Below are positions 1 through 12,847 of a stretch of 64,000 nt of DNA, piece after piece (position 1 is the first letter of the stretch; each line of letters begins with the position of its first letter). The notes under the pieces are model-generated. The model was not told the DNA's origin. It did not search any database and saw nothing but the letters and a program-made list of their open reading frames with translations. Location of the stretch: assembly GCA_965208125.1 (NCBI GenBank), contig OZ242320.1, positions 1,248,001-1,312,000 on the forward strand. The letters are read 5' to 3'. Both the position numbers and the translations under genes were made by a program. Source of the stretch: Candidatus Latescibacterota bacterium (GTDB lineage: Bacteria; Latescibacterota; UBA2968).

Positions 1-2251
1 GTCCCAATCCCCAGAACGTGACCCATCTCATGTAATATCACTGTCCGCAGGGATCCTTCCTCTTCAATTTTCTGCAGGTCGGCCTTATCTAACCATATCT
101 TTCCAAGGATTGGCAATCTGTTGTCCTCCCGTATCCAAAACGGGGCTCCCTTCCCTGCAGTATCGCCGAAGCCGTCAATCTCGACAGCCCGCACAAATAT
201 CCTCAGGTCATCTACAATGTCATTAACGCGAATCCGCGTGCCCAAATCCGCGTCCCACTTGTTATACGGATTGGTCGAAAAGTCGGTATCCCTGAGGTCT
301 TCTGTAATGATCGACATCCAGTGCCTTGCCGCCTGCTGGAATACCGCCTTTTGAGAGGAAGTGAAGTCATCGTCGTTGACGAAGACGAGTTCGATATTGA
401 AGTCTCCGCGCGTACCCGACGTCGATTCCTGACCCGCCTCAAAACGCACATGCAAGTCATAGCTGCCAGTGTTATAGCCTTCCACTTCAATATAATAGGC
501 CCCCGGAAAGACCTGGCTCATTATTCCGAAATTATTTCCGCTTCCACTGTCGTCATCACTTGTCCAAAGATAAGGCACATCTCCATTTCCAATATCATAT
601 AGATAACCCCGAGTATCGATATTGCCTGTCGTGAAGACGGTCAACGCACCAGGCTTGCTTACCTGCACTTTGAAGTAATCTTTATCATTGAGGTTTTCTA
701 TCCATCCTATGCGATCAATGCCCAAAGAACCCGAAGTATTTAAAACGACCCATGAAAGGGCAGTCGCACCGACCCATGTATTGCTATCATCCGAATAAAA
801 AAGTGCATTCAAGGTATAGCTTCCGGTCTCTGATCCATAGCCTTCTACTTTGATGTAATAGGTGCCTGAATTTACGACATAATTTATTCCGAAATTATTT
901 CCGCTTGCACCGTCGTCATCAGTTTCAAAGTAGAACCAGAACTATTTTGTAGCGCACCTTGAGTATCGAGGTTGCCTGTCGTATAAACCGTCAACACACC
1001 GTATCCGCTGACCTGCACGCTGAAGTAATCTACATCAGTGCCGGTTTCTATCTGTCCTGATTTCTCGGCTTCTACATATCCCAGATCATCTAAATAAGTC
1101 ACCTGAATTGAGTCTAAAAACCCCCACCTGAGCCTGGTTGCGCCAGACCTATTATTGCTATGGTCATCGCTTGATTCGGAAATCTGCCAGTTCGCCTGGC
1201 CGGTGTTTCCATCGTCACAAGTGTAGCTTAAAACACCTCCCGTAATTGAACTAAAGGTAAGTTGGTTTCTGCAGCTACCACCGGAGTATTGATTATCATC
1301 ATAGTTTTGCGTAAGCGTGCCAGTATTCGGACCGGTATTCGAATATGTATAACTCCCTGGATAGGTAGAGGTATCTCCATCAGAGATTATGATTTCCCTG
1401 AAACGGCCAGCAGACACAAACTCAATAATAAAATTAAAATTTGATATTACTAAGCGTTTGCCAACCAAAAGGCTGTTGAATGCCTGCTGATCTACTGGCG
1501 CAAAACCAGAAGACGGGTTTGGACTGCCACCTCCACCACCTCCGCTCGGGGGAGATACAGATTTACCGAAGTCGTTGGTGAAGATCAAAAAATCTGGAAA
1601 GCCAATCGCGCCATCGCTATCCAGATCGTACTTCGCTTGATATGTCCCATCACCTCGGCTTGCCCCATACACACCTGCAAACTGCAGAAAGTCGACAAAG
1701 CCCACCATACCATCGCCATCAAAGTCAGGAGAAAGTGTGGCATTAAACCTGATCACATCTCTTGTTGTAATCTCGTCGCGCAATGACGCACTTTCAGCAA
1801 GCGTAACCTGCTTAATGCCAATAGAAAATTCCCGACCCGTTACATCTACAGCCGTAGTAAACTCAGCGCGTGCCAGAAAACCAGATGATGGCAAGGTGAC
1901 AGGTGCAGTAGCGGCGAAGTTTATGCCAGTCGCTTCTGGAATCGCAAAGAGAAACGCACTGTTCTCCGCTTTTTCAAACTTCAAAACAGACGTATCAAAG
2001 TCAAATATGACTTTCACACCAACCAGCGGTGTAGTCACACCTGTTGCGAAAACTTCAACCGCAATTTTTGTGCCCTGTCCAGAGACCGTGCCCGAAACAA
2101 CGCCATTATCTCTCTGATTACCCGACCCGCCATCGGGAATAAGATCAAGCGACAGTGTCGCACCAGCATTTGAACCAGCAGAGGCTTGACCCACAAATAC
2201 CAGTAATGCAAGAATAACTATGACGACAAAATTAGTGATCCATTTATACAT
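1..2251 (-). pseudogene. Secreted modular protein (cohesin-like + dockerin-like + two PPC-like repeats + HExxH zinc metallopeptidase), split by one frameshift near 926-930; runs off the left edge
   Basis: Signal peptide MYKWITNFVV...GQASA from ATG 2251. Paired EF-hand motifs DFDGDGMVGFVDF / DLDSDGAIGFPDF. The tracked ORF stops at 884, but a second frame from ~926 (ETDDDGASGNNFGI...) is open to position 1 and ends VILHEMGHVLGIG (HExxH at 18-32). The frameshift could be a sequencing error. Confidence 0.8.
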
Positions 2252-2292: not shown

Positions 2293-2988
2293 CTATTTCC
2301 CGATAGGCAAGCCGATACCAACCTGAAGGGCAATAGACCGGTTCTTAACATCATCATTTTCTACTTTGCTAAACGATTGGACCCCCAAAGTGTACAGCAA
2401 TTCGACTAAGAATGTCATCCCTTCGGAAATCGCTATCTCAGTACCGATCCCTCCAGTAATGCCCAAGTCCACCGTCCTGGTCTTGACGAAGTCCCCACAA
2501 TCCACTGGTTTCCCTGTTGTTGACCCATCTGTACCCACGATTCCGCACTTGACATTGAACGCCACCGCCGGTCCAGCGAGCACATATATGGAAGTTGGGC
2601 CTCCGGGTGGGACGAGCGAGGCGATACCCAGGCCTGAAAATTCGATATAATCAAGGTTTGCACTGCCACTTAAATTATCAATGCCAAAAAAGTCCAAAAA
2701 GCCGTCTTCGACAACATCGGCTTGCCACCCTTTCTGCACATAGTTACCACTGAGTTGAAGGGCGAATCTATCCTGTATTGTGATAGTTGCAGAAGTACCG
2801 ACTTTGATGCCTGTACGCGCGCCCATGTCCAAGCCTTCTAGGGACGCGTCATCTCCGCCTATGGTCGCTCGACTCAAGCCTCCCCGAATAGCGATTGTTG
2901 TCTGCCCAAAAACAGGGATAGGATCGTGCAGGGCCGCCAAGGCTATTACACCCATGATAACGATGTAATGAAATGATAAGTGTTTCAT
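2293..2988 (-). CDS. Outer-membrane beta-barrel (porin/PorT-like family) protein
   Basis: AGGTGAGG RBS before ATG 2988. Signal-like N-terminus, alternating amphipathic strands (YVQKG, LDYIEF, KNRSIALQVGIGLPI). The ORF-track extension to 3204 runs through a non-coding repeat. Confidence 0.75.
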   Translation of the reverse strand: MKHLSFHYIVIMGVIALAALHDPIPVFGQTTIAIRGGLSRATIGGDDASLEGLDMGARTGIKVGTSATITIQDRFALQLSGNYVQKGWQADVVEDGFLDFFGIDNLSGSANLDYIEFSGLGIASLVPPGGPTSIYVLAGPAVAFNVKCGIVGTDGSTTGKPVDCGDFVKTRTVDLGITGGIGTEIAISEGMTFLVELLYTLGVQSFSKVENDDVKNRSIALQVGIGLPIGK

Positions 2989-3051
2989 ATCTATATACCT
3001 CACCTGTAAAAAAGATGATGCCAAAATGGTCTCTGATTGGTAGAATCGAAA

Positions 3052-3212
3052 AAAATGTAACTTGATGTTGTGGTTGTGGAACTTTACATTTTGATACAGA
3101 GCGGGTTGCGGTTTGCAAGACCGTTTCCTCTCTGTATGTTGCGGCAGAAGGCCACAGGCAGCCAAACCGAGCGGCCTTCTGCCATTCCCGCAGACATCAT
3201 ACATGTTTGCGG
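3052..3212 (-). ncRNA. Element II copy 1: three-hairpin structured leader/intergenic RNA of unknown family
   Basis: Near-identical to 4039-4200 and 12352-12513. Stems ccgcaaaca/tgtctgcgg, ggcagaaggcc/ggccttctgcc, atacagag/ctctgtat. Confidence 0.65.
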
Positions 3213-3241
3213 TACAGATCTCTCTTTTTTCTTTCTACCTT

Positions 3242-3736
3242 CTATTCTGCCTTCTTTATCTTCTCTATTTTGATCTGTACGGGTTGTGTTGAAATAAATT
3301 TCACCGATGCATCGCCAGAAGGGACAATTTTAACGGGTATATCGACAGCACCTGTTTGTTGGCTCGTAAGAGTAACGCTGATTCTCTCTGGGTATAAATC
3401 ATATAATGATCCTGCCATGTAATCTACCATGAGACCCACACCGGACCCGAGAAGATCAAGAAGGACAACTCCAATGTCCACTTTTTTTCTGATTCTCACC
3501 TGACGTGTCTCGTATCCTTCTTTTGAAATTGTAACATTATAATTCTGATTACGTTCCAATTCTGCTTCTGCTGGTGTGGTATATGTCTCGCCTTCTATAT
3601 CAACGGTGCTTCCTGGTGGTGTCGATCTAATGCTAATAAGTTGAGTAGAGCCATTAAGAATCAATCCACATCCAGAAAAAGAAAACAAAGAGAAAGTACA
3701 CAGCAATGCTAATGATACGGACAGGCAATTTTTCAT
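3242..3736 (-). CDS. PEGA-domain lipoprotein
   Basis: Lipobox FSG-C; PEGA-like STPPGSTVDIEG...TTP...VTISKEGYE; AAGGAAGGA RBS. Confidence 0.8.
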   Translation of the reverse strand: MKNCLSVSLALLCTFSLFSFSGCGLILNGSTQLISIRSTPPGSTVDIEGETYTTPAEAELERNQNYNVTISKEGYETRQVRIRKKVDIGVVLLDLLGSGVGLMVDYMAGSLYDLYPERISVTLTSQQTGAVDIPVKIVPSGDASVKFISTQPVQIKIEKIKKAE

Positions 3737-4038
3737 AACAACAATCCTTCCTTTTCTTAAAGGTCAAATACGTAACTAAATGTGAGTGATGTCTCATTGA
3801 TGGCGACTATAATCTATCACCCACATCAAATTCTTTTTTTGCACAAAACTAACACCGCGAAATTCTAAACTCAATGAGACGACATGCTTTCTGATCTTAT
3901 CCTCCTTTCAAAAGCAAATATTACTGATAGATTGAATTACCCTGCTCCGCATCTAGGTTAATACTTCTCGCCTAGTAACAGATCGGGCACAGACATAAGT
4001 TTTAAGCCTTCTCCTCCTTTCTCGTTGCATCAAACGGG

Positions 4039-4200
4039 AAAATGCAACTTGCTTTTGTGATAGTGGCACTTTACATTGTGAACAGAGCGGGTTGCGGTTT
4101 GCAGAACCGTTTCCCCCTCTGTATGTTGCGGCAGAAGGCCACAGGCAGCCAAACCGAGCGGCCTTCTGCCATTCCCGCAGACATAATTACCTGTTTGCGG
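4039..4200 (-). ncRNA. Element II copy 2
   Basis: Same three stems. Similarity to copy 3 extends to an RBS (gaaaggagg, ~4013-4021). Confidence 0.65.
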
Positions 4201-4261
4201 TTTTTTTTATAATAAGCGTTCAGCAGTCAGCAAAACAAGCTATTCGCTGATTTTCAGCAAT

Positions 4262-4299
4262 AAAAAAACCGCGTGTCCAGAACCAGATGACACGCGGTT
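4262..4299 (-). terminator. Intrinsic terminator between element I and element II
   Basis: aaccgcgtgtc-loop-gacacgcgg followed by a T7 run on the minus strand. Confidence 0.8.
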
Positions 4300-4320
4300 G
4301 ATTATTGTGCTATAAATAAT

Positions 4321-4496
4321 ACCGAATGCCATATCACCTATGGCATCCGGTTGCATTATAGAGCCGGTCAAATGCCACAGGCTGTTAGACTCTATCTATA
4401 GCCCAGATTGAGCTCGGCCCTTTCGGAAACCGAAACCATAGCATTTAACCGGCTGGAAGTTGCACAGTATATCCGGCCCCTCCAGCCGGTGCTATA
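4321..4496 (-). ncRNA. Element I copy A: candidate riboswitch/attenuator or sRNA
   Basis: Homologous to 12581-12770. Long helix ccggttaaatgctatgg/ctgtggcatttgaccgg encloses two hairpins. 3' hairpin accggatgccata/tatggcattcggt. Confidence 0.65.
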
Positions 4497-4515
4497 AATA
4501 AAGCCTAACGGCCTT

Positions 4516-4544
4516 ATATTACAACATAAAAGAATCGTTTGCAA
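4516..4544 (-). promoter_or_regulatory. sigma70-like promoter upstream of element I copy A
   Basis: TTGCAA-17 nt-TAATAT, about 20 nt upstream of the element. Confidence 0.55.
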
Positions 4545-4768
4545 GAAGAAATTGCTCATAAAATTTGCTGGCGCAGTCTGGTATAAAGCGGGCCAATCCA
4601 TAGATTGTACACCCCGCTTCAGTGTGGGGCAGGACCCAAAGTAAGACCACAATGTACATACACTCACAGGTACAGAGAGGTTTCAAATTTATTCATGCTG
4701 AGTCACCGAACAACACCAGTATCGCGTGATAAAGGAGCGTGGATTTGCGTTTTAACGCGAAGCAACAG

Positions 4769-4820
4769 CACAAAAAGAGAACGCCCCAGCATCGTTGTGC
4801 CGGGGCGTTCTCTTTTTGTG
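4769..4820. terminator. Bidirectional intrinsic terminator (related to the hairpin at 5741-5772)
   Basis: 19-bp perfect inverted repeat cacaaaaagagaacgcccc...ggggcgttctctttttgtg. Confidence 0.8.
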
Positions 4821-4910
4821 TATCAGGTAAACCAAAAAACGATTGTAAAAAAAGGCTTTTTCCAGACCCGTTCTCCGACCAGTTGCACCATTGCGCCTGT
4901 TCGTAACAAC

Positions 4911-5630
4911 TCAATGTACCAATTTGATGCCCCATTCAACACACCGCGTTTCGACTTCATCAAGCGGTGCCATGGTCACGATCACGCCATCGACTGTTTT
5001 ATCGGGGTGCAAAGTCCGCATCAACCCCACTTTATCGGCAAAGCGATCCACATCTTCCACCTCGCAAACAGACTTCACTTCAAACACCAGTAAAGTGCTG
5101 TTATAGACCAGAATATCGACTTCGTAGCGGCGCCCTGAAGGTCCAATCATGCCATCCTCATCTTCAAGAGGCTGTCGCAAACGCACATTTTCAGATACAA
5201 TATCGTCTCGCCCAAGAACCAATCTCATCGTGCCAGCAACAACATCCTCGAGTTTTCTGCCAGACCGCGTTTGGAAGCGTCCCACGATCATCTCAACCCA
5301 ATCTCTCAGATCGGAAAAACGCTGATCCATCTGGTCAAACCGTTCATCAACTTTCTCAAATCGCTCATCAACTTTCTCAAATCGCTCATCAACTTTCTCA
5401 AACCGTTCATTGACTTCCGACTGAAATGTATCCATGCCTGACCGAAATGTATCAAACTCGCCACGAAAATCGCGCAATTCAGAAAGGATTGCTGCGACTT
5501 CTTCCTTAGTAGCAAAAGTCCGCATAAAAGCCGTATAGACGCGCCGTTCCATCTCTGGATGGCGTGCAAGCAAAGCCGGCAACTGCTTCTCAAGCGTCTC
5601 TAATAATTCTTCATCTGTCAACAAGGCCAT
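4911..5630 (-). CDS. Coiled-coil + PD-(D/E)XK-fold protein (DUF3782-like)
   Basis: Heptad repeats ERFEKVD x3; C-terminal YEVDILV...FEVKS nuclease-fold motif; GAGG RBS. Confidence 0.75.
   Translation of the reverse strand: MALLTDEELLETLEKQLPALLARHPEMERRVYTAFMRTFATKEEVAAILSELRDFRGEFDTFRSGMDTFQSEVNERFEKVDERFEKVDERFEKVDERFDQMDQRFSDLRDWVEMIVGRFQTRSGRKLEDVVAGTMRLVLGRDDIVSENVRLRQPLEDEDGMIGPSGRRYEVDILVYNSTLLVFEVKSVCEVEDVDRFADKVGLMRTLHPDKTVDGVIVTMAPLDEVETRCVEWGIKLVH
5345..5407. repeat. 21-bp tandem repeat x3 encoding a coiled-coil heptad
   Basis: tcatcaactttctcaaa(t/c)cg(c/t) repeated. Confidence 0.85.
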
Positions 5631-5740
5631 CTCTCATTCCTCATTAGAATTTCCATAACGCAAGGCCAACTGTTCCAATGACCTTTATCAGATCAAAAGT
5701 AGCCGATTTCTATGGACCTGTCAACACTCCTCAATGAACT

Positions 5741-5772
5741 ACGCCCCAGCATCGAAATGCCGGGGCGTTCTT
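5741..5772 (-). terminator. Terminator-like hairpin downstream of the LRR gene
   Basis: acgccccagcat-cgaa-atgccggggcgt; no clear U-tract. Confidence 0.55.
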
Positions 5773-5884
5773 ATGTGTCAGGTAAACTCATCCTGAATTC
5801 ATACTATTCGCCATAGGGATTTGAGTCAACGCCATCGTCCACCCAATCCGAAATCCAATATAGTCTCTGATCGCTCTGCGGTCA

Positions 5885-7897
5885 TCAAAACTGCACCGTA
5901 ACTCCTCTGCCTTGAAGGGCTGGAATATGCGTGTTGATTGATGCGTCACTCAGAGGATTATCCCGCACATCAACCCTGTCTCCACTACCCCATCCCGTAT
6001 TTGCTACCAATGGCGAAAGGTCCGTGATTGAGTTATTGCGAAGCCATAATGTTTCTATATTGGTCAAGTTAGACAGCGGCGAAATATCCACGATTGAGTT
6101 ATAGTTAAGAACCAGATATGTCAGATGGGTTAAATCTGACAGTGGTGACACATCCGAGATGGTGTTATTGTTAAGAATCAGACTTGTCAAACTGGTCAAA
6201 CCGGACAGCGGGGACACATCCGAGATGGTATTACTGTTAAGCACCAGACTTGTTAAACTGGTCAAACCGGACAGTCCAGATATGTCCGAGATGCTGTTGC
6301 TGTCAAGACGTAGCCTTGTCAGGCGGGTCAACTCTGACAGTGCTGACACGGCCGAAATGGAGTTGTTGTGAAGAGTCAGATACGTCAGACTGGTCAAGCC
6401 TGACAGTGGTGACACATCCGAGATGCTGTTGCTGGAAAGACTTAGACTGCTCAGACTGGTCAAGCCTGACAGTGGTGAAAGGTCTGTGATCGAGTTGTTG
6501 GAAAGCAATAGCCTTGTCAGAATGATTGCAAACTCCAGACCGGTCAAATCGCTAATGTTCGAGTTCGGTGCATCAAGGCGGGTTAGAGTTGACATATCGC
6601 TTCTGGTGATCGTCTCGCCGCTCGACTTATCCAAAGCGTCCTCAATGGCAACACGCAGATTCGTGTCTGGGATGCTCACAGGCGTTGGGTCGATAACGTT
6701 AAAAACCACCCTAACCCCTCTATCTTGAAGGGCTGGAATGTGTGTGTTGATTGATGTTGTACCCAGAGGATTATCCTTCACATTAACATCGTCACCACTG
6801 CCTAATCCCGTATTTGCCACCAATGGCGCGAGATCGGAGATAGAGTTGTTTTGAAGCCATAGAGTTTGCAGATTGGTCAAGCCTGACAGCGGTGTGAGGT
6901 CAGAAATTGAGTTGTTGATAAGAATCAGCCCTTGCAGATTGGTCAAGTTAGACAGCGGTGAAAGATCCGTAATTGAGTTGTTGACAAGCAACAGCCCTGT
7001 CAGATTGGTCGCAAACTCAAGCCCGGTCAAATCGCTAATATTCGCATTCACTGCGGCAAAGAGGGTTAAGGTTGCCATCTCATCTCTGGAAATCGGAGCA
7101 CCACTCGCCTTGTTCAGACTGTCCTCAACCACAGCGCGCAGATTCATATCTGGAATAGAAACCATCCCTTCATCGCCACCATCAGAAGGAGACACCGTTT
7201 GACCATATTTACCTATAAGAATCCTCAAATCGCCCGCTGCAATCACCCCATCCCTATCCAGATCGTATTTCGCAACATCATCAGCTCGCCGAGACCCATA
7301 CACGCTGATCAGAAGCAGAAGGTCGGATTTACCGACAACACCATCCCCATCAAAATCGGGGGAAGGTGCGACATTAAACCTGATCACCTCTGTTGTTGTA
7401 ATAACATCCTCCACAGGCCTCGCGTTCGTATCTCCAGCAAGCACAATCCTCTTAATGCCAATAGAAAACTCTCGCCCCGTTACATCCACTGCGGTAGTAA
7501 ACTCTGCCCGTGCTAAAAAACCAGACTCAGACAAAGTCGCAGGTGAACTTGCTAATGTTCCCAAGACTGTACCAGTCGCTTCATTTTGAAGTGTAATCAG
7601 AGATGCACTGCTCCTGGCTCCGACATAGGCCAAAACAGACGCATCAAAATCAAATTCAATTCGTACACCAAGCAACGGCGTGGTCACACCTTTTGCGAAA
7701 ACTTCAACCGCGATTTTTGTCCCCTGTCCAGACACTCTACCTGAAGTAACGCCATCATCTCTCTCATTACCTGCCCCTCCATCGGCAATCAAATCAAGCG
7801 ACAAAACCGCATTCGCATTGGGACCAGCAGTCGTTTCTCCTGTACATATCAACAACCCAAAAAGGGTAAAAAACAATAATCCTTTTCTCAAAAACAT
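5885..7897 (-). CDS. Secreted cohesin-like + dockerin-like + internalin-type LRR protein (two capped LRR blocks)
   Basis: Signal peptide; N-domain similar to that of the 2251 gene; DFDGDGVVGKSDL / DLDRDGVIAAGDL; many 22-aa LxxLxLxxNxIxDxSPLSGL repeats; GGAGAGGAG RBS. Confidence 0.9.
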   Translation of the reverse strand: MFLRKGLLFFTLFGLLICTGETTAGPNANAVLSLDLIADGGAGNERDDGVTSGRVSGQGTKIAVEVFAKGVTTPLLGVRIEFDFDASVLAYVGARSSASLITLQNEATGTVLGTLASSPATLSESGFLARAEFTTAVDVTGREFSIGIKRIVLAGDTNARPVEDVITTTEVIRFNVAPSPDFDGDGVVGKSDLLLLISVYGSRRADDVAKYDLDRDGVIAAGDLRILIGKYGQTVSPSDGGDEGMVSIPDMNLRAVVEDSLNKASGAPISRDEMATLTLFAAVNANISDLTGLEFATNLTGLLLVNNSITDLSPLSNLTNLQGLILINNSISDLTPLSGLTNLQTLWLQNNSISDLAPLVANTGLGSGDDVNVKDNPLGTTSINTHIPALQDRGVRVVFNVIDPTPVSIPDTNLRVAIEDALDKSSGETITRSDMSTLTRLDAPNSNISDLTGLEFAIILTRLLLSNNSITDLSPLSGLTSLSSLSLSSNSISDVSPLSGLTSLTYLTLHNNSISAVSALSELTRLTRLRLDSNSISDISGLSGLTSLTSLVLNSNTISDVSPLSGLTSLTSLILNNNTISDVSPLSDLTHLTYLVLNYNSIVDISPLSNLTNIETLWLRNNSITDLSPLVANTGWGSGDRVDVRDNPLSDASINTHIPALQGRGVTVQF

Positions 7898-7989
7898 TTA
7901 CAACTCTCCTCTCCTATGTAGTGATGTGGTTTACGCAGAACCTGCACCCGTTCTGCTTCTTGCCCTTTCGGGATCCGAACGCCATATAG

Positions 7990-8005
7990 TGCAAAAAGCG
8001 TGCCA
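7990..8005 (-). promoter_or_regulatory. sigma54 (RpoN) -24/-12 promoter
   Basis: TGGCAC-GCTTT-TTGCA exactly fits TGGCAC-N5-TTGCW, ~90 nt upstream of ATG 7897. Confidence 0.7.
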
Positions 8006-8050
8006 ATATGAGCGTTGTTATAGATCTATATTCGTAAAGCGTTGTTTTAC

Positions 8051-8168
8051 AAAAAGAAAAAGAGCCAATCTAACTATATTATATCGTCGCAGAATAGTCG
8101 GATTGGCTCTTACACAAGACCCTATATCGTCTTAAAAGACGTAATAGGGTCTCAATAGTCCCGAGACC
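8051..8168 (-). ncRNA. Short structured RNA ending in an intrinsic terminator
   Basis: Overlapping hairpins ggtctc/gagacc and gaccctat/atagggtc, then aagagccaatc..actat/atagt..gattggctctt + tttctttttg. TTGCAA at 8198-8203. Confidence 0.5.
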
Positions 8169-8341
8169 ACAGTACATTCTTCATTATCATTTTTCGTTTG
8201 CAAGTGTGAGATGCAATGTATGAATTAGTTTTTTCCCATATCATAAGGTTCTCTATGACCAAACCACTTGATCCCACAGGCATCTAATGGCCGAGCGCAG
8301 GCTTGCATTTTGCGGTGTGTATATGTATCTTTGCACGCGAC

Positions 8342-8457
8342 AAAAACCTTCTGGATCGCGGCTCGACAGCACGCCCGATGACAGGCAAAAACCTCTGGAT
8401 TGCGGCTCGAAACCATGCCGCGATGACAGACGGGACGGCACAGGGGCCGTCCCCTAC
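8342..8457. repeat. Cluster of palindromic repeats: two CTGGA...TGAC units and one GTAG-type REP
   Basis: ctggat(c/t)gcggctcga...gatgac x2 (also at 19801); gggacggcacaggggccgtcccctac at 8432-8457. Confidence 0.75.
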
Positions 8458-8500
8458 AACACCATACCGCAATGACAACTAAAACCAAAGGAAAAAAATA

Positions 8501-9697
8501 ATGTTTGAAACACTGACAATGGCACCTGCGGATCCCATTATAGGATTGACCGAAGCATTCAAAAATGACCCAAACCCCGACAAAATAAACCTCGGCGTTG
8601 GCGTGTACAAAGACGGCGACGGCAACACGCCGATATTTGCCTCTGTAAAAACAGCGGAAGAACGCCTTTTAACACACGAAGACACCAAAAATTATCTCGG
8701 CATAGAAGGCGACGAAGCGTATAACAAAGCCGTCCAAGAACTCCTCTGGGGAACAGATCACGAAATACTCACCAGTGGTCGCGCCGGAACAGCCCAGGCA
8801 CCGGGCGGTACTGGCGCATTGCGCATTGCCGGCGACTTTATTCATCAGCACTATCCCCATGCCCGCGTATGGCTGAGCGATCCCACCTGGGCAAACCACC
8901 CCAAAATTTTTGAATCTGCTGGCGTACCCACAGAAACCTACCGCTATTACAACCCCGCGTCTTTTGGCCTAGACTTTGACGCACTTATCCAGGACCTCGG
9001 GCAAATCCCCGCAGGCGATGTCGTCTTGCTACACGGATGTTGCCACAACCCCACCGGCGTCGATCCCTCCGCCGAACAATGGGCGCAAATAGCCGATATC
9101 ATCGCAGATCGCGGCATCATCCCACTCGTAGATTTTGCCTATCAGGGCCTGGGCAACGGCCTCGTCGAAGACGCAGTCGGACTCCTATCTCTCAGCCGGC
9201 CCGGCTGCGAACTCCTCGTCGCCAGTTCCTTCTCCAAAAACTTTGGCCTCTACCGCGAGCGCACGGGCGCATTGACCCTCGTCGGAAAAGACGCCACCGC
9301 CGTTGAAAAAGCGATGAGCCACATCAAAATCTGCATCCGCACAAATTATTCCAACCCGCCATCGCACGGCGCCCAGGCAGTCGCAACGGTTCTCAACGAC
9401 CCCGACTTGCGGGCACAATGGGACGGCGAAGTAAAAGCCATGCGCGACCGCATCAACAACATGCGCACCCTATTTGTGGATACCCTCGAAACAAAAGGCG
9501 TGCGGCGCGACTTTTCGTTTATCGCACACCAGAGGGGAATGTTCTCTTTCTCCGGATTGACTCCCGAGCAAGTAGAAGCATTGCGCGAGAAATTTTCAAT
9601 ATACATCGTCAATTCGGGACGGATTAACGTGGCGGGCATGACAAAGGACAACATCGGGCCATTGTGCGAAGCGATAGCGGAAGTGATGGACGAATAG
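8501..9697 (+). CDS. aspC: Aspartate/aromatic amino acid aminotransferase (AspC/TyrB family)
   Basis: DKINLGVGVYKD, HGCCHNPTG, SFSKNFGLY(K-PLP)RER, QRGMFSFSGL, SGRINVAG. Confidence 0.95.
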   Translation: MFETLTMAPADPIIGLTEAFKNDPNPDKINLGVGVYKDGDGNTPIFASVKTAEERLLTHEDTKNYLGIEGDEAYNKAVQELLWGTDHEILTSGRAGTAQAPGGTGALRIAGDFIHQHYPHARVWLSDPTWANHPKIFESAGVPTETYRYYNPASFGLDFDALIQDLGQIPAGDVVLLHGCCHNPTGVDPSAEQWAQIADIIADRGIIPLVDFAYQGLGNGLVEDAVGLLSLSRPGCELLVASSFSKNFGLYRERTGALTLVGKDATAVEKAMSHIKICIRTNYSNPPSHGAQAVATVLNDPDLRAQWDGEVKAMRDRINNMRTLFVDTLETKGVRRDFSFIAHQRGMFSFSGLTPEQVEALREKFSIYIVNSGRINVAGMTKDNIGPLCEAIAEVMDE

Positions 9698-9850
9698 ACG
9701 GAGCGGTAACTGGTCGTTTCTCAGGCCAGTTCATCAACGGAGCGGGGTAACGCCAGACTGTACCATCGCTGTTGAGCGATGAAGGTTATACGACGGCGTG
9801 TGTGGGCAATTTAATCCTGTAAAGCGTGCAAAAAATTTCCCTTTTCAGTA

Positions 9851-12313
9851 CTATTGGTTCACAATAATCTGGTTGTGTTCGTTGTCACCAATGACCTCCC
9901 ACGGGGTTGGCGCATCCACTGTGCCTATGATGTTAATCAGCACCTTGCCAGAGGTTTTTACCCGGATTCCGACAGTATTCGCGCGAATAAAACCCGTGAC
10001 AATAATCGTGATGTCGCCAGTCTCACTCTCGGCACTGATGCCGATTCCGTGGCGGTTGCTGGCGATAATGGTGCCGTCGATGACAATCTCTATATCGCCG
10101 CTACCCGCCGGGCGCGAGGGGTCGTAGAGTACATTTTTACTTTCGGCTAAAATCCCGATAGCTCTGGGACCAGACACGACGATATCACCGCTGTTGTCGA
10201 TGACGATATCACCAGCTGAATACACGCGGGTTTCCCCGTCAACGGTGATGTCCCTGCCATACGCTTGGGCATATATCCCGTGAGAGCGGGCTCGGCTCGT
10301 CTCAATGCGACCCGAGTTGGCGATTTCGATCTTGCCGCCGAGGCCGTGATGTGCCCTCAGCCCGCTTGCATCCTCTCCGCGTGTTGTGATCTGACCGGTA
10401 TTCGCCGCGTAGGTCAGCCGAGTTTCTCCGATGGGATCAGGGGGCAACAATCTGAATTTTTCTCGGCTGCGCTGGTCGAGAAGATCGTGGAACGGCGTGA
10501 TATCAAACCCAGGAATCCAGAAGGCGAAAGCCAAAAGGCCCGAAGACCTCAAGCCAGTAGTTGAAACAGTTCCTTCATTGATGCCATAAGCTTGACCAGA
10601 CCTCTTCGCTGCGACCGCAATTCCAGGGCTGCGGCGCCCCGTTGTCTCGATGATGCCGGTGCGGTAGTTTCGCGCGTATGCAGCACCTGCGGCATTGGTT
10701 TTCGGCCGCGTTATGATTTCCTCTTGTATGTGGTGGCAACCCTCATTGTCAAAATAGGCAGCACAGGTCTCGGAATGAATACCATCGCTGAGTCTTCCCC
10801 TTGTCGTTACGCTGCCGGTATTATGCGTCTGCGTTGTGCCCCACAAGGTCTGCGCTGCCACTCCGCGGCTACTAACGCCCTCTACATCGATGGTTCCGTA
10901 GTTGATTGAGCGGGCAAGCTGGCCGCCGGTCTCGACGAATAGGCCATCTTGTCGGCCTTCGTCCCCAGTGATGAGAATACTGCCGCTCGACAGGTTGATG
11001 GACTCGGCAACATGTGTGTCGTCGTGTGGTGCGGCACTCTTGTGGATTTGGCTCGCGATGCCCCGTAGCGTTTTATCCGTCGAGTTATCGATTGTTACCG
11101 TACCGTAATTAGCTGTGTATACATTTCCACTGCCGCGCGAATATGTCCGCAGTCCTATACCCCATTCGAGTATTTGGATCATGCCCTTATTGACCAGCAT
11201 TAAATCGTCGGTATTTCCATACGTTATAATATTTATAGCAAACGCATTGGTCGCGTTGATCCCCGCTGTTTCTGTGAATGTGGCCGCGTATGCCTGCTTT
11301 TTTTCGTCTGAACTGTTGATGAAATTGAGGGCTGAGGTACCGGAGGGAACAGTGATCGTGCCTGCATCGTAATAGACATGGGTGGCGATGTCGGGATCAG
11401 AGGCTGTCGCTGGATTTAGCGGCGTTACCCTGTCGCCTTCGTAGCTATCGGTTATTGGGAGGGTAATTGTGTAATCCCTTACCGGGTATGGCGAAAAAGC
11501 TGGAGAAGGGTTGGACAGCGTGAGATGATCAAAGCGTACATTAACCCCTCTCTCAGATAGGGCGGGAATGTGCGTATTGAGCGACATGGCACTCAGCGGA
11601 TTATTATTCAGTAAAACCCAGTCGTCCTTGTCCAATCCCGTATTAGCTACCAATGGCGCGATATCCGAGATTGTATTGCCACGAAGATATAGATGTGTCA
11701 GGCCGGTCAGGTTGGCAACTGGCGCAATATCCGAGATCGCATTGCCATCGAGATTCAGCCATCTCAGGCTGGTCAACTCATCTATCGGTGCGATGGTAGA
11801 TATGTCGTTGCTGTTTACTTTTCGCCCCTCTATCCAATCATAGCCAAAATTTAGCCGTGTCAGATTCGTTGCATACTCGAGACCTGTCAAATTGCGAATG
11901 GCTTTGTTAGGTGCGTCAAGGCGCGTCAATTTTGACATATCGTCCGGGGTAATAGGTGCATCGCTTGTTTTGCCGAGAATTTTGGCAATGACCGCACGCA
12001 GGTTCTCATCTGGAATGTCAACAGTCGTTGTGCCGCCACTGCCTGACGGCGGAAATGTCTTGCCCCAATTGGAAATAAGGAGCCTTAAGTCCAATTCATC
12101 AACGATCTTATCACTTTTCAGATCAAACTTCGCATCCCAATTTGGTCCACCTGCTCGCGTTCCCCAATTGGAAATAAGGAGCCTTAAGTCCAATTCATCA
12201 ACGATCCCATCGTCGTTAAAGTCAGGAGAAGGCGTAGGGGTCTGAGATGCAAGAGACAGCGGATAGGCCAACACACATAAACAAATCATCAAAAACGCAA
12301 CACGAAACTTCAT
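9851..12313 (-). CDS. Secreted dockerin-like + LRR + beta-helix/autotransporter-passenger-like protein
   Basis: GGGAGG RBS and signal peptide MKFRVAF...LASQ; DFNDDGIVDELDL duplicated; capped LRR block; NxGxIxTxG..S.GI repeats; no beta-barrel seen. Confidence 0.8.
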   Translation of the reverse strand: MKFRVAFLMICLCVLAYPLSLASQTPTPSPDFNDDGIVDELDLRLLISNWGTRAGGPNWDAKFDLKSDKIVDELDLRLLISNWGKTFPPSGSGGTTTVDIPDENLRAVIAKILGKTSDAPITPDDMSKLTRLDAPNKAIRNLTGLEYATNLTRLNFGYDWIEGRKVNSNDISTIAPIDELTSLRWLNLDGNAISDIAPVANLTGLTHLYLRGNTISDIAPLVANTGLDKDDWVLLNNNPLSAMSLNTHIPALSERGVNVRFDHLTLSNPSPAFSPYPVRDYTITLPITDSYEGDRVTPLNPATASDPDIATHVYYDAGTITVPSGTSALNFINSSDEKKQAYAATFTETAGINATNAFAINIITYGNTDDLMLVNKGMIQILEWGIGLRTYSRGSGNVYTANYGTVTIDNSTDKTLRGIASQIHKSAAPHDDTHVAESINLSSGSILITGDEGRQDGLFVETGGQLARSINYGTIDVEGVSSRGVAAQTLWGTTQTHNTGSVTTRGRLSDGIHSETCAAYFDNEGCHHIQEEIITRPKTNAAGAAYARNYRTGIIETTGRRSPGIAVAAKRSGQAYGINEGTVSTTGLRSSGLLAFAFWIPGFDITPFHDLLDQRSREKFRLLPPDPIGETRLTYAANTGQITTRGEDASGLRAHHGLGGKIEIANSGRIETSRARSHGIYAQAYGRDITVDGETRVYSAGDIVIDNSGDIVVSGPRAIGILAESKNVLYDPSRPAGSGDIEIVIDGTIIASNRHGIGISAESETGDITIIVTGFIRANTVGIRVKTSGKVLINIIGTVDAPTPWEVIGDNEHNQIIVNQ

Positions 12314-12351
12314 GATCGCCCCTCCCTTTCTCGTCGCATTCCTCAACCGGA

Positions 12352-12513
12352 AAAATGCAACTTGATTTTGTGGTGGTGGAACTTTACATTGTGCATAGAG
12401 CGGGTTGCGGTTTGCAAGACCGTTCCCCTCTCTGTATGTTGCGGCAGAAGGCCACAGGTGGCCAAACCGAGCGGCCTTCTGTCATTCCCGCAAACATAAC
12501 ACACGTTTGCAGG
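12352..12513 (-). ncRNA. Element II copy 3
   Basis: Same architecture; first stem altered but still paired (cctgcaaacgt/atgtttgcggg). Confidence 0.65.
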
Positions 12514-12580
12514 TTTTTATTTACGACAATCGTTCTGTCAGGACTTTCTCATCTTCTCGATTTACAGTCTGGAATCAGAC

Positions 12581-12770
12581 AAAAAAACACCGAATGCCAT
12601 ATCACCTATGACATCCGGTTTCTCTATTGAATATGCCGATTAAATGCCACAGGCTACCTTCTTAATCTATAGCCTAGATTAAGTTCGGTTCCTTTAGTCC
12701 CCGAAGCCATAGCATTTAACCGGCTGGAAGTTGCACAGTATATCCGGCTCCCTCCAGCCGGTAGGCTATA
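12581..12770 (-). ncRNA. Element I copy B, ending in an intrinsic terminator
   Basis: Homologous to 4321-4496; hairpin accggatgtcata/tatggcattcggt followed by g and T7. Confidence 0.7.
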
Positions 12771-12786
12771 TTTAAGAAGGCACCTT

Positions 12787-12814
12787 ATGATAAACATTAA
12801 TAAACTTTACGCAA
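12787..12814 (-). promoter_or_regulatory. sigma70-like promoter upstream of element I copy B
   Basis: TTGCGT-16 nt-TATCAT, followed by aagg as in copy A. Confidence 0.5.
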
Positions 12815-12847
12815 TAAAAAACGCATAAGCCTTTCCAAGGAGAAATC

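Follow-up and report, generated by a model that had tools for sequence, protein, structure and literature searches.

Element II, a multi-hairpin motif that occurs three times on the minus strand of the window (the whole 64,000-nt stretch analysed, positions 1,248,001 to 1,312,000 of contig OZ242320.1, assembly GCA_965208125.1), is a genuine, previously undescribed leader RNA motif restricted to one genus of Latescibacterota, a phylum that has, to our knowledge, no cultured representative. The element is folded, kept by selection, sense-oriented, and placed inside transcribed leaders beside the ribosome-binding site. Tentatively, and at less than even confidence, we believe that it is a cis-acting leader domain controlling translation or message stability. 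In the parts of the full-text literature that were accessible, no paper on Latescibacterota RNA motifs, riboswitches or RNA-level regulation bearing on the element was found.

Structure, range and position of element II

The three window copies have a mutual identity of 90–91% over 148–159 nt (BLAST), and each consists, from 5' to 3' as RNA, of stem 1, the hairpin P2, a 7-nt junction, the hairpin P3, and a tail. P2 is a 41-nt hairpin with 11-bp arms (ggcagaaggcc/ggccttctgcc), P3 is a 40-nt hairpin with an AA/CAA internal loop and a cggu/accg tip, and the tail is 45 nt long and C/A-rich, with a U-run at its 3' end. In copies 2 and 3, GUUGCAU of the tail pairs with AUGCAAC (AUGCGAC in copy 3) to form a further hairpin, P5, immediately 5' of a GAGAAAGGAGG-type ribosome-binding site; copy 1 has no P5. 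An initial annotation, made from the letters of the sequence, had given the positions and the minus strand of all three copies correctly. The hairpins that it described (stem 1, the P2 stem, and a third hairpin whose internal loop is A-rich and whose tip is cggt/accg) and its conserved tail are all present, although conservation of the tail up to the ribosome-binding site, which it also claimed, holds for two of the three copies and fails for the third. Pfam agreed with the downstream genes that it named, which encode an outer-membrane protein (OMP) beta-barrel, a PEGA protein, and a protein with Dockerin_1 and leucine-rich repeats (LRR). The whole leader of copy 3 folds at -84.5 kcal/mol (z -4.22), and a second leader fold had a z value of -3.8.

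A covariance model of 103 positions and 27 pairs (R1), used with a profile search, found 14 copies in the window's 5.75-Mb genome at E values of 8e-25 to 6e-4, which is far above chance. The genome-wide search proposed in the initial annotation thus extended the family beyond its three copies. The three window copies are the type A copies of this genome; besides them, there is one type A2 copy at 5.455 Mb, four type C copies, in which stem 1 differs, the P2 loop is longer and the P3 tip is of the ugg/cca type, and six type B copies with a shortened P3, which lie on one strand within 25 kb at 4.78–4.80 Mb. The element was present in 16 of 20 other congeneric genomes with R1, and the result was the same with R2, a second model built from 71 copies. 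The number of copies per congeneric genome ranged from 0 to 15, and same-strand clustering was frequent; for example, genome G015 has seven copies within 17 kb. R1 had no match in four genomes from other genera of the family or in 16 from the sister family, and R2 had none in 32 genomes of the order outside the genus. When R1 was run on a sample of 150 genomes of the phylum, it matched 14 of 19 congeners, and the 131 others gave one marginal match (25.8 bits, E 0.004). Exact matches to the junction region occur in metagenome-assembled genome records of Candidatus Latescibacterota. In metagenome contigs, a degenerate P3 pattern gave 12 loci; 2 were confirmed by the model, and the other 10 are therefore chance matches. 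No Rfam 15 family reached its gathering score in the window, and at E up to 5 no Rfam match fell on the core in four other copies or in window positions 2900–4700. The nearest Rfam match, AaHKsRNA82 (33.1 vs 51.4 bits), covers 4191–4305, which is spacer and the end of element I, a separate structured element described below.

The 71 copies were aligned to the covariance model (alignment A6), and 91.5% of 1862 cells formed standard pairs. Compensatory, two-sided changes were found in 19 of 27 pairs, and P2 had them in 12 of 12. None of 500 column shuffles reached any of five pairing measures, and when the 3' partners were slid by 1–3 columns, pairing fell to 31–57%. The first pair of the P3 tip is C-G in 40 copies and U-A in 23. 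Loss of the structure among further copies, which the initial annotation had named as grounds for giving up its reading, was not seen over these 71. Three copies have an unrelated hairpin in place of P2 and retain the junction and P3, type B retains only the base and middle of P3, and stem 1, which covaries at two positions among 16 aligned type A/A2 copies, is absent from 3 of the 16. Stem 1 and the apical part of P2 are replaceable modules, and the conserved core, as predicted from the alignment, is the long hairpin P2, the invariant junction, and P3 with its internal loop. At least five of the seven P5 pairs form in 21 of 35 tails, and the U-G pair of P4 is retained in 33 of 35; the excess of G-U over A-C in P5 (15 vs 3) is biased by the choice of rows. 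Two other pairings were tried and rejected. Single-sequence and alignment folds suggested that the junction GCAAC pairs with GUUGC of the tail, but types A2 and B lack the junction string and keep the tail. Pairing of the tail with an 8-nt complement in element I was dropped because the L059 copy at 3941 changes both sides and complementarity is lost. Inspection by eye gave no loop–loop pairing of P2 and P3 that was consistent across types.

Open reading frames (ORFs) were called by a greedy rule with a minimum of 110 codons. Of the 66 copies for which a next gene could be called, 63 have it on the same strand and 3 on the opposite strand (5 of the 71 were uncallable), so the constant orientation 5' of genes noted in the initial annotation holds across the family, and the mixed orientation that it took as the mark of a miniature inverted-repeat transposable element (MITE) was not found. 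Among 68 copies, the preceding gene shares the strand of the element in 48 and is divergent in 20. A sigma-54 promoter (TGGCAC-N5-TTGCA, 10- or 11-of-11 match) lies 43–156 nt upstream of the core in 12 of the 71 copies, ten of type C and two of type A. The window's genome has the sigma-54 gene rpoN, and it contains 25 exact matches to TGGCACG-N4-TTGCW, compared with 0 for the reversed control. For other copies, reading by eye showed good sigma-70-like hexamers immediately upstream, such as TTGCAA-16-TATAAT about 20 nt before stem 1 in L066. The ribosome-binding site is directly 3' of P3 in several type C copies and 3' of P5 in most type A copies. Because the promoters are upstream of the element, its sense strand would be transcribed as part of the 5' leader, and to judge from these motifs it appears to belong to that leader under more than one kind of promoter. 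Integron attC sites, which also form same-strand arrays, were set aside on anatomy, since element II has several separate hairpins and lies directly behind promoters, and the preceding gene is divergent for 20 of 68 copies.

A type C copy 210 nt before a sigma-54 activator gene (Reg_prop and Y_Y_Y domains) has the same place in six species. The mean pairwise identities over the 15 pairs of these six orthologous leaders were 94.3% for the core and 96.7% for the first 40 nt 3' of it, compared with 91.4%, 87.0% and 76.1% for codon positions 2, 1 and 3 of the gene and 66.9% for the DNA 61–160 nt upstream. As the core and tail are above codon position 2, this indicates purifying selection, including on the unpaired parts, and not mere recent copying. 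The sigma-54-driven leader of a superinfection-immunity gene contains stem 1 and the core in G015, and exactly 143 nt are absent from the same leader in the window's genome; the flanks are otherwise nearly identical, and the borders have only short direct repeats (GCT/GGCT or an offset 8-mer). G011, a genome free of the element, has an orthologue of the OMP gene that follows copy 1, and homology with it restarts at window position 3048, the next base after the U-run of the tail. These filled and empty orthologous sites indicate that the module is gained or lost as a unit, and insertion and deletion both fit. They also agree, together with very different downstream genes, with the claim in the initial annotation that the element is associated with interchangeable genes.

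Pfam was used to scan 55 downstream proteins. Their domains included LRR, dockerin, WD40 with CARDB, cadherin-like, Calx-beta and fn3, and the products also included outer-membrane beta-barrel, PEGA, polysaccharide lyase, FGE-sulfatase and superinfection-immunity proteins, as well as a group II intron-type reverse transcriptase. As a crude export test, we looked for a hydrophobic stretch of 14 residues within the first 75. It was present in 46 of 68 downstream ORFs, compared with 228 of 1001 ORFs from 40 randomly chosen 30-kb stretches of the genome. Exported proteins, to which the initial annotation linked the element, are therefore enriched threefold, but this is not a rule, and the exceptions include ankyrin proteins, a GPP34-P450 protein and the sigma-54 activator.

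Function and competing explanations

We speculated that element II is transcribed with the downstream gene from whichever promoter precedes it, sigma-54 or sigma-70-like. The RNA presents, from 5' to 3', a variable stem 1, P2 with its conserved apical loop, the invariant junction, and P3, whose base is invariant, whose internal loop is AA/YAA and whose tip has 4 bp. A tail rich in C and A and poor in G follows P3 in types A, A2 and B, and the ribosome-binding site comes next, at once in some type C copies or after the short P5 in most type A copies. The action is presumably in cis and after initiation: the stable 5' hairpins may shield the message, and a putative trans-acting factor may read the unpaired positions that do not vary, along with the tail next to the ribosome-binding site, and so set translation and message lifetime. 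The outcome would be a common post-transcriptional control over a changing set of mostly envelope and secreted proteins, which new members may join by duplication or recombination of the module before another gene. The initial annotation had also called the element a cis-acting RNA. Its structure, sense orientation, position 5' of genes and place inside the leader, with sigma-54 promoters upstream, support that part of the claim, and the functions listed there were not narrowed to one.

Several known systems resemble a leader domain of this kind. Orphan Rfam Cis-reg motifs, such as the atoC motif before sigma-54 regulator genes, are likewise covarying multi-hairpin structures in presumed 5' untranslated regions and restricted to a lineage, and some copies of element II also precede a sigma-54 activator gene; element II differs in having no Rfam match, a much higher copy number per genome, and downstream genes of very mixed kinds. 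The 5' stabiliser stem-loops of ompA and S-layer gene leaders share the stable hairpins near the 5' end of long envelope-gene leaders. Such stabilisers need structure only, whereas the loops, junction and 45-nt tail of element II are 94–97% conserved between species.

Several points weigh against control of translation or message stability by a folded sense RNA. Conservation of the loops at 94–97% is more than a simple stabiliser would need. The alignment was fitted to the structure of the model, which favours the pairing counts, and the copies are related, so that the counts are not independent. P4 and the P3 base are invariant (the four central P3-base pairs hardly vary) and give no covariation information. 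The helix cells contain 82 G-U and 100 A-C; since G-U cells are not in excess, the pairing statistics alone do not name the folding strand. As for a trans-acting factor, neither CsrA (PF02599) nor Hfq (PF17209) had a match in the window's genome (G000), which is 96.4% complete, no RRM_1 protein was found in that 96%-complete genome, and the tail had no complementary genome locus at up to 3 mismatches in 21 nt. Moreover, the downstream genes are heterogeneous by Pfam.

The absence of CsrA, Hfq and RRM_1 matches would suit a riboswitch-like aptamer, in which P2, the junction and P3 form a pocket that may bind a second messenger or an envelope-related metabolite; the expression platform would be P3 with its U-run in type C, and the tail together with P5 and the ribosome-binding site in type A. 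The helices do covary around invariant unpaired nucleotides, and up to 14 copies per genome precede a regulator gene and a variety of genes for surface and secreted proteins. Many copies before surface-type genes are the pattern of second-messenger riboswitches, and c-di-GMP-I (GEMM-I) and its kin also have a two-hairpin core with a conserved junction and many copies before surface, adhesion and secreted protein genes. The type C P3 internal loop (GAA opposite UAA) may also resemble the UAA/GAN tertiary module. However, element II has no sequence or structure match to c-di-GMP-I and no Rfam riboswitch match at all, and it was found in a single genus only, apart from 2 of 12 metagenome pattern matches. 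Parts of the putative aptamer are dispensable, since three copies do without the apical part of P2 and the P3 tip is absent from type B. A conserved alternative pairing was not evident: P5 forms in 21 of 35 tails, P4 is invariant, and the junction–tail pairing fails in A2 and B. We therefore regard an aptamer as improbable, and it is just as doubtful that the core represents a new, genus-confined riboswitch class switching a movable surface and secreted regulon together with its own sigma-54 activator; if it did, the module would recruit genes simply by being copied before them. Control of transcription elongation, which we consider unlikely but deserving of some weight, would make the element either an attenuator (P3 with the U-run in type C, and the G-poor, C/A-rich tail as a Rho loading site) or a nut-like antitermination site. 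Its P3 base is invariant in sequence, P3 of type C is followed by 4–6 U, and many of the genes downstream are very long. The 3' arm of P3 and the first bases of the tail also resemble boxA: the boxA of the organism's own rRNA is UGUUCUUUGAAAAU and UGCUCUUUGACAAU, and the corresponding type A segment is GCUCUGUUCACAAU. Nut-like boxA/boxB sites serve antitermination in rRNA operons and phage lambda, boxA is also known from mRNA leaders, and position T6 of boxA is critical (PMC5725501). Element II likewise has hairpins beside a GCUCU-U-rich-ACAA string, but the match requires an inserted G at just that T6 position, plus 1–2 mismatches. The boxA-like segment is, in addition, base-paired in P3 and not single-stranded, and it is not conserved in types B and C, which fit boxA worse. 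A leader of the RfaH/LoaP/UpxY type would involve a NusG paralogue, and each of the 21 genomes of the genus has a single PF02357 match. The terminator scan, which covered the window copies, found no sense-strand terminator inside the three, and the type C P3 with its U-run is interrupted by internal loops.

The gain and loss at orthologous sites bears on another explanation, namely that element II is a selfish or duplicative repeat, MITE-like or spread as a cassette by recombination, whose position before genes reflects the sites at which it could survive. The copy number of 0 to 15 among congeners, the precise 143-nt presence or absence with short direct repeats at the borders, and the exact restart of homology to the element-free OMP orthologue at the end of the tail all fit such a repeat. 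So do the 5' A-run and 3' U-run of type A, which form imperfect terminal inverted repeats, the 15-nt, 80% inverted repeat around copy 1, and one type C copy between 39-nt direct repeats beside a tRNA gene. The co-transcribed intergenic repeats Correia/NEMIS, ERIC, BOX and REP are likewise multi-copy, modular, lineage-specific, foldable, and present or absent at orthologous sites, but they occur in both orientations and often 3' of genes. Element II keeps a single orientation relative to the next gene (63 vs 3), is strongly constrained, and at the orthologous locus is under stronger selection than codon position 2. No transposase is linked to the copies and no clean target-site duplication was seen, and deletion between short repeats explains the 143-nt difference equally well; a mainly selfish repeat seems to us a poor prospect. 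The near equality of A-C and G-U cells also raises the question of whether the functional strand is the opposite one, as an antisense RNA ending at stem 1 and a U-run, or as a terminator or insulator for antisense transcription. Stem 1 of copy 2 with its A-run is a canonical terminator on the plus strand in the scan, and the fold of the antisense strand is no weaker (z -3.18 vs -2.50). On the other hand, the A-run is missing from types B and C, no antisense promoter was seen to be conserved, the element lies between sense promoters and ribosome-binding sites, and the P4 U-G pair kept in 33 of 35 tails would become a C-A mismatch; this makes a functional opposite strand very unlikely. Finally, the palindromic stems may be a DNA site for a dimeric regulator, such as the neighbouring sigma-54 activators, because both stems are palindromic and type C copies cluster around two sigma-54 activator genes. 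We hold this to be highly improbable, since the copies lie downstream and not upstream of the sigma-54 promoters, and the arms change together so as to keep complementarity while P2 can be swapped for unrelated hairpins, which points to pairing and not to a fixed protein site.

Window coordinates and neighbouring features

The positions of the three copies, their parts, the genes that follow them, and the two copies of element I are listed below.

Features of element II and its surroundings in the window (positions of the 64,000-nt stretch)
Feature	Position	Strand	Remarks
Copy 1 (type A)	3049–3212	-	within PEGA-OMP gene pair; R1 match 3091–3188, 105 bits
Copy 1, stem 1	3188–3212	-	
Copy 1, P2	3143–3183	-	
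Copy 1, junction	3136–3142	-	
Copy 1, P3	3096–3135	-	
Copy 1, tail	3049–3095	-	CA-rich, U-run end
Copy 2 (type A)	4013–4200	-	R1 match 4077–4175, 101.7 bits
Copy 2, stem 1	4175–4200	-	
Copy 2, P2	4130–4170	-	
Copy 2, junction	4123–4129	-	
Copy 2, P3	4082–4122	-	
Copy 2, tail	4039–4081	-	
Copy 2, P5	4024–4048	-	
Copy 2, Shine-Dalgarno-like run	4013–4023	-	
Copy 3 (type A)	12321–12513	-	R1 match 12390–12488, 96.2 bits
Copy 3, stem 1	12487–12513	-	
Copy 3, P2	12443–12483	-	
Copy 3, junction	12436–12442	-	
Copy 3, P3	12395–12435	-	
Copy 3, tail	12351–12394	-	
Copy 3, P5	12333–12361	-	
Copy 3, Shine-Dalgarno	12321–12332	-	
Copy 3, start codon	12311–12313	-	
Gene 3' of copy 1	2293–2988	-	outer-membrane beta-barrel protein; Pfam OMP_b-brl_2 7.6e-11; ATG at 2988–2986
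Gene 3' of copy 2	3242–3736	-	PEGA-domain lipoprotein-like protein; Pfam PEGA 2.4e-8
Gene 3' of copy 3	9851–12313	-	dockerin and leucine-rich-repeat protein; Pfam Dockerin_1, LRR_4; N-terminal hydrophobic stretch
Element I, copy a	4255–4542	-	upstream of copy 2; hairpins then U-runs; terminator-like site 4351–4321 (-)
Element I, copy b	12555–12830	-	upstream of copy 3; terminator-like site 12619–12589 (-)

Element I is a structured element of about 270 nt. Its two copies differ in ways that appear compensatory, and it has no Rfam match. The genome contains only these two full copies (nhmmer), each upstream of a type A copy, and in the relatives element I precedes at least 12 of 25 type A copies when the flanks are read by eye. 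Each copy has its own sense-strand terminator-like hairpin and U-run, so that an uninterrupted composite leader would exist only with read-through. The composite leader of about 450 nt proposed in the initial annotation is accordingly not established, and promoter-like hexamers lie between element I and element II. A promoter-like site, TTGCAA-17-TAATAT, was also seen upstream of element I copy a. Element I may be the gene of a small RNA, or else a sensor coupled to an attenuator.

Around copy 1, the inverted repeat mentioned above (3039–3053/3225–3239, 15 nt, 80% complementary) could close the whole element as a long-range helix; its 3' arm is part of the native leader of the OMP gene. The core of copy 2 lies 340 nt before the start of the PEGA gene, and a further conserved leader segment, beginning ggcttaaaacttatcacgcc-like, follows the ribosome-binding site at 3950–4012 (-). 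This segment was also found 3' of type A copies in L016, L053, L063, L071 and L004, and it was seen where type A copies are 150–350 nt from their gene; in copy 2 it contains a 12-codon open frame that is not conserved elsewhere. At 7990–8005 (-), some 90 nt upstream of a dockerin/LRR gene (5885–7897) that has no element II, TGGCACGCTTTTTGCA matches the sigma-54 promoter exactly, and the same string precedes two type A copies in G014.

Outside the window, a ribosome-binding site and a frame of 13–17 codons (approximately M-M-K-N-Q-I-V-S-V-Q-L-F-R) directly follow the type C element of the activator leader in six species (about 1430–1470 (-) in L005, orthologous in L011, L055, L014, L015 and L018), and this may be a leader peptide. 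The locus L055 (G015 C1:2013500–2033400) is a 17-kb same-strand stretch with two sigma-54 activator genes and five more, which encode a superinfection-immunity protein, a cadherin-like protein, two uncharacterised proteins of about 795 aa, and a polysaccharide lyase. A type C copy precedes six of these genes (one activator and the five others), several with their own sigma-54 promoter, and the locus looks like one regulon of repeated promoter and leader units. At C1:1556830–1557130 (L008, about 1430–1730), a type C copy without a following sense gene lies between two 39-nt direct repeats, the second of which is the 5' half of a perfect bidirectional terminator hairpin beside tRNA-Gln; this copy resembles an insertion into, or a recombination with, the loop of the terminator hairpin. 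In L060 (1003–2853), about 70 nt separate a type A-like copy from a downstream reverse transcriptase of the group II intron type, which has maturase and HNH domains, and this space is too small for intron domains I–III.

Meaning of the shared leader

Covariance model R2 can be used to annotate the element in new assemblies. The core is about 100 nt long. Element II offers a clear example of a putatively regulatory RNA module that passes from gene to gene under strong selection. Within a genome, this leader is shared by up to about 15 genes regardless of promoter type, and these genes are mostly envelope, adhesion-like and secreted protein genes, which points to a post-transcriptional layer over the cell-surface repertoire.

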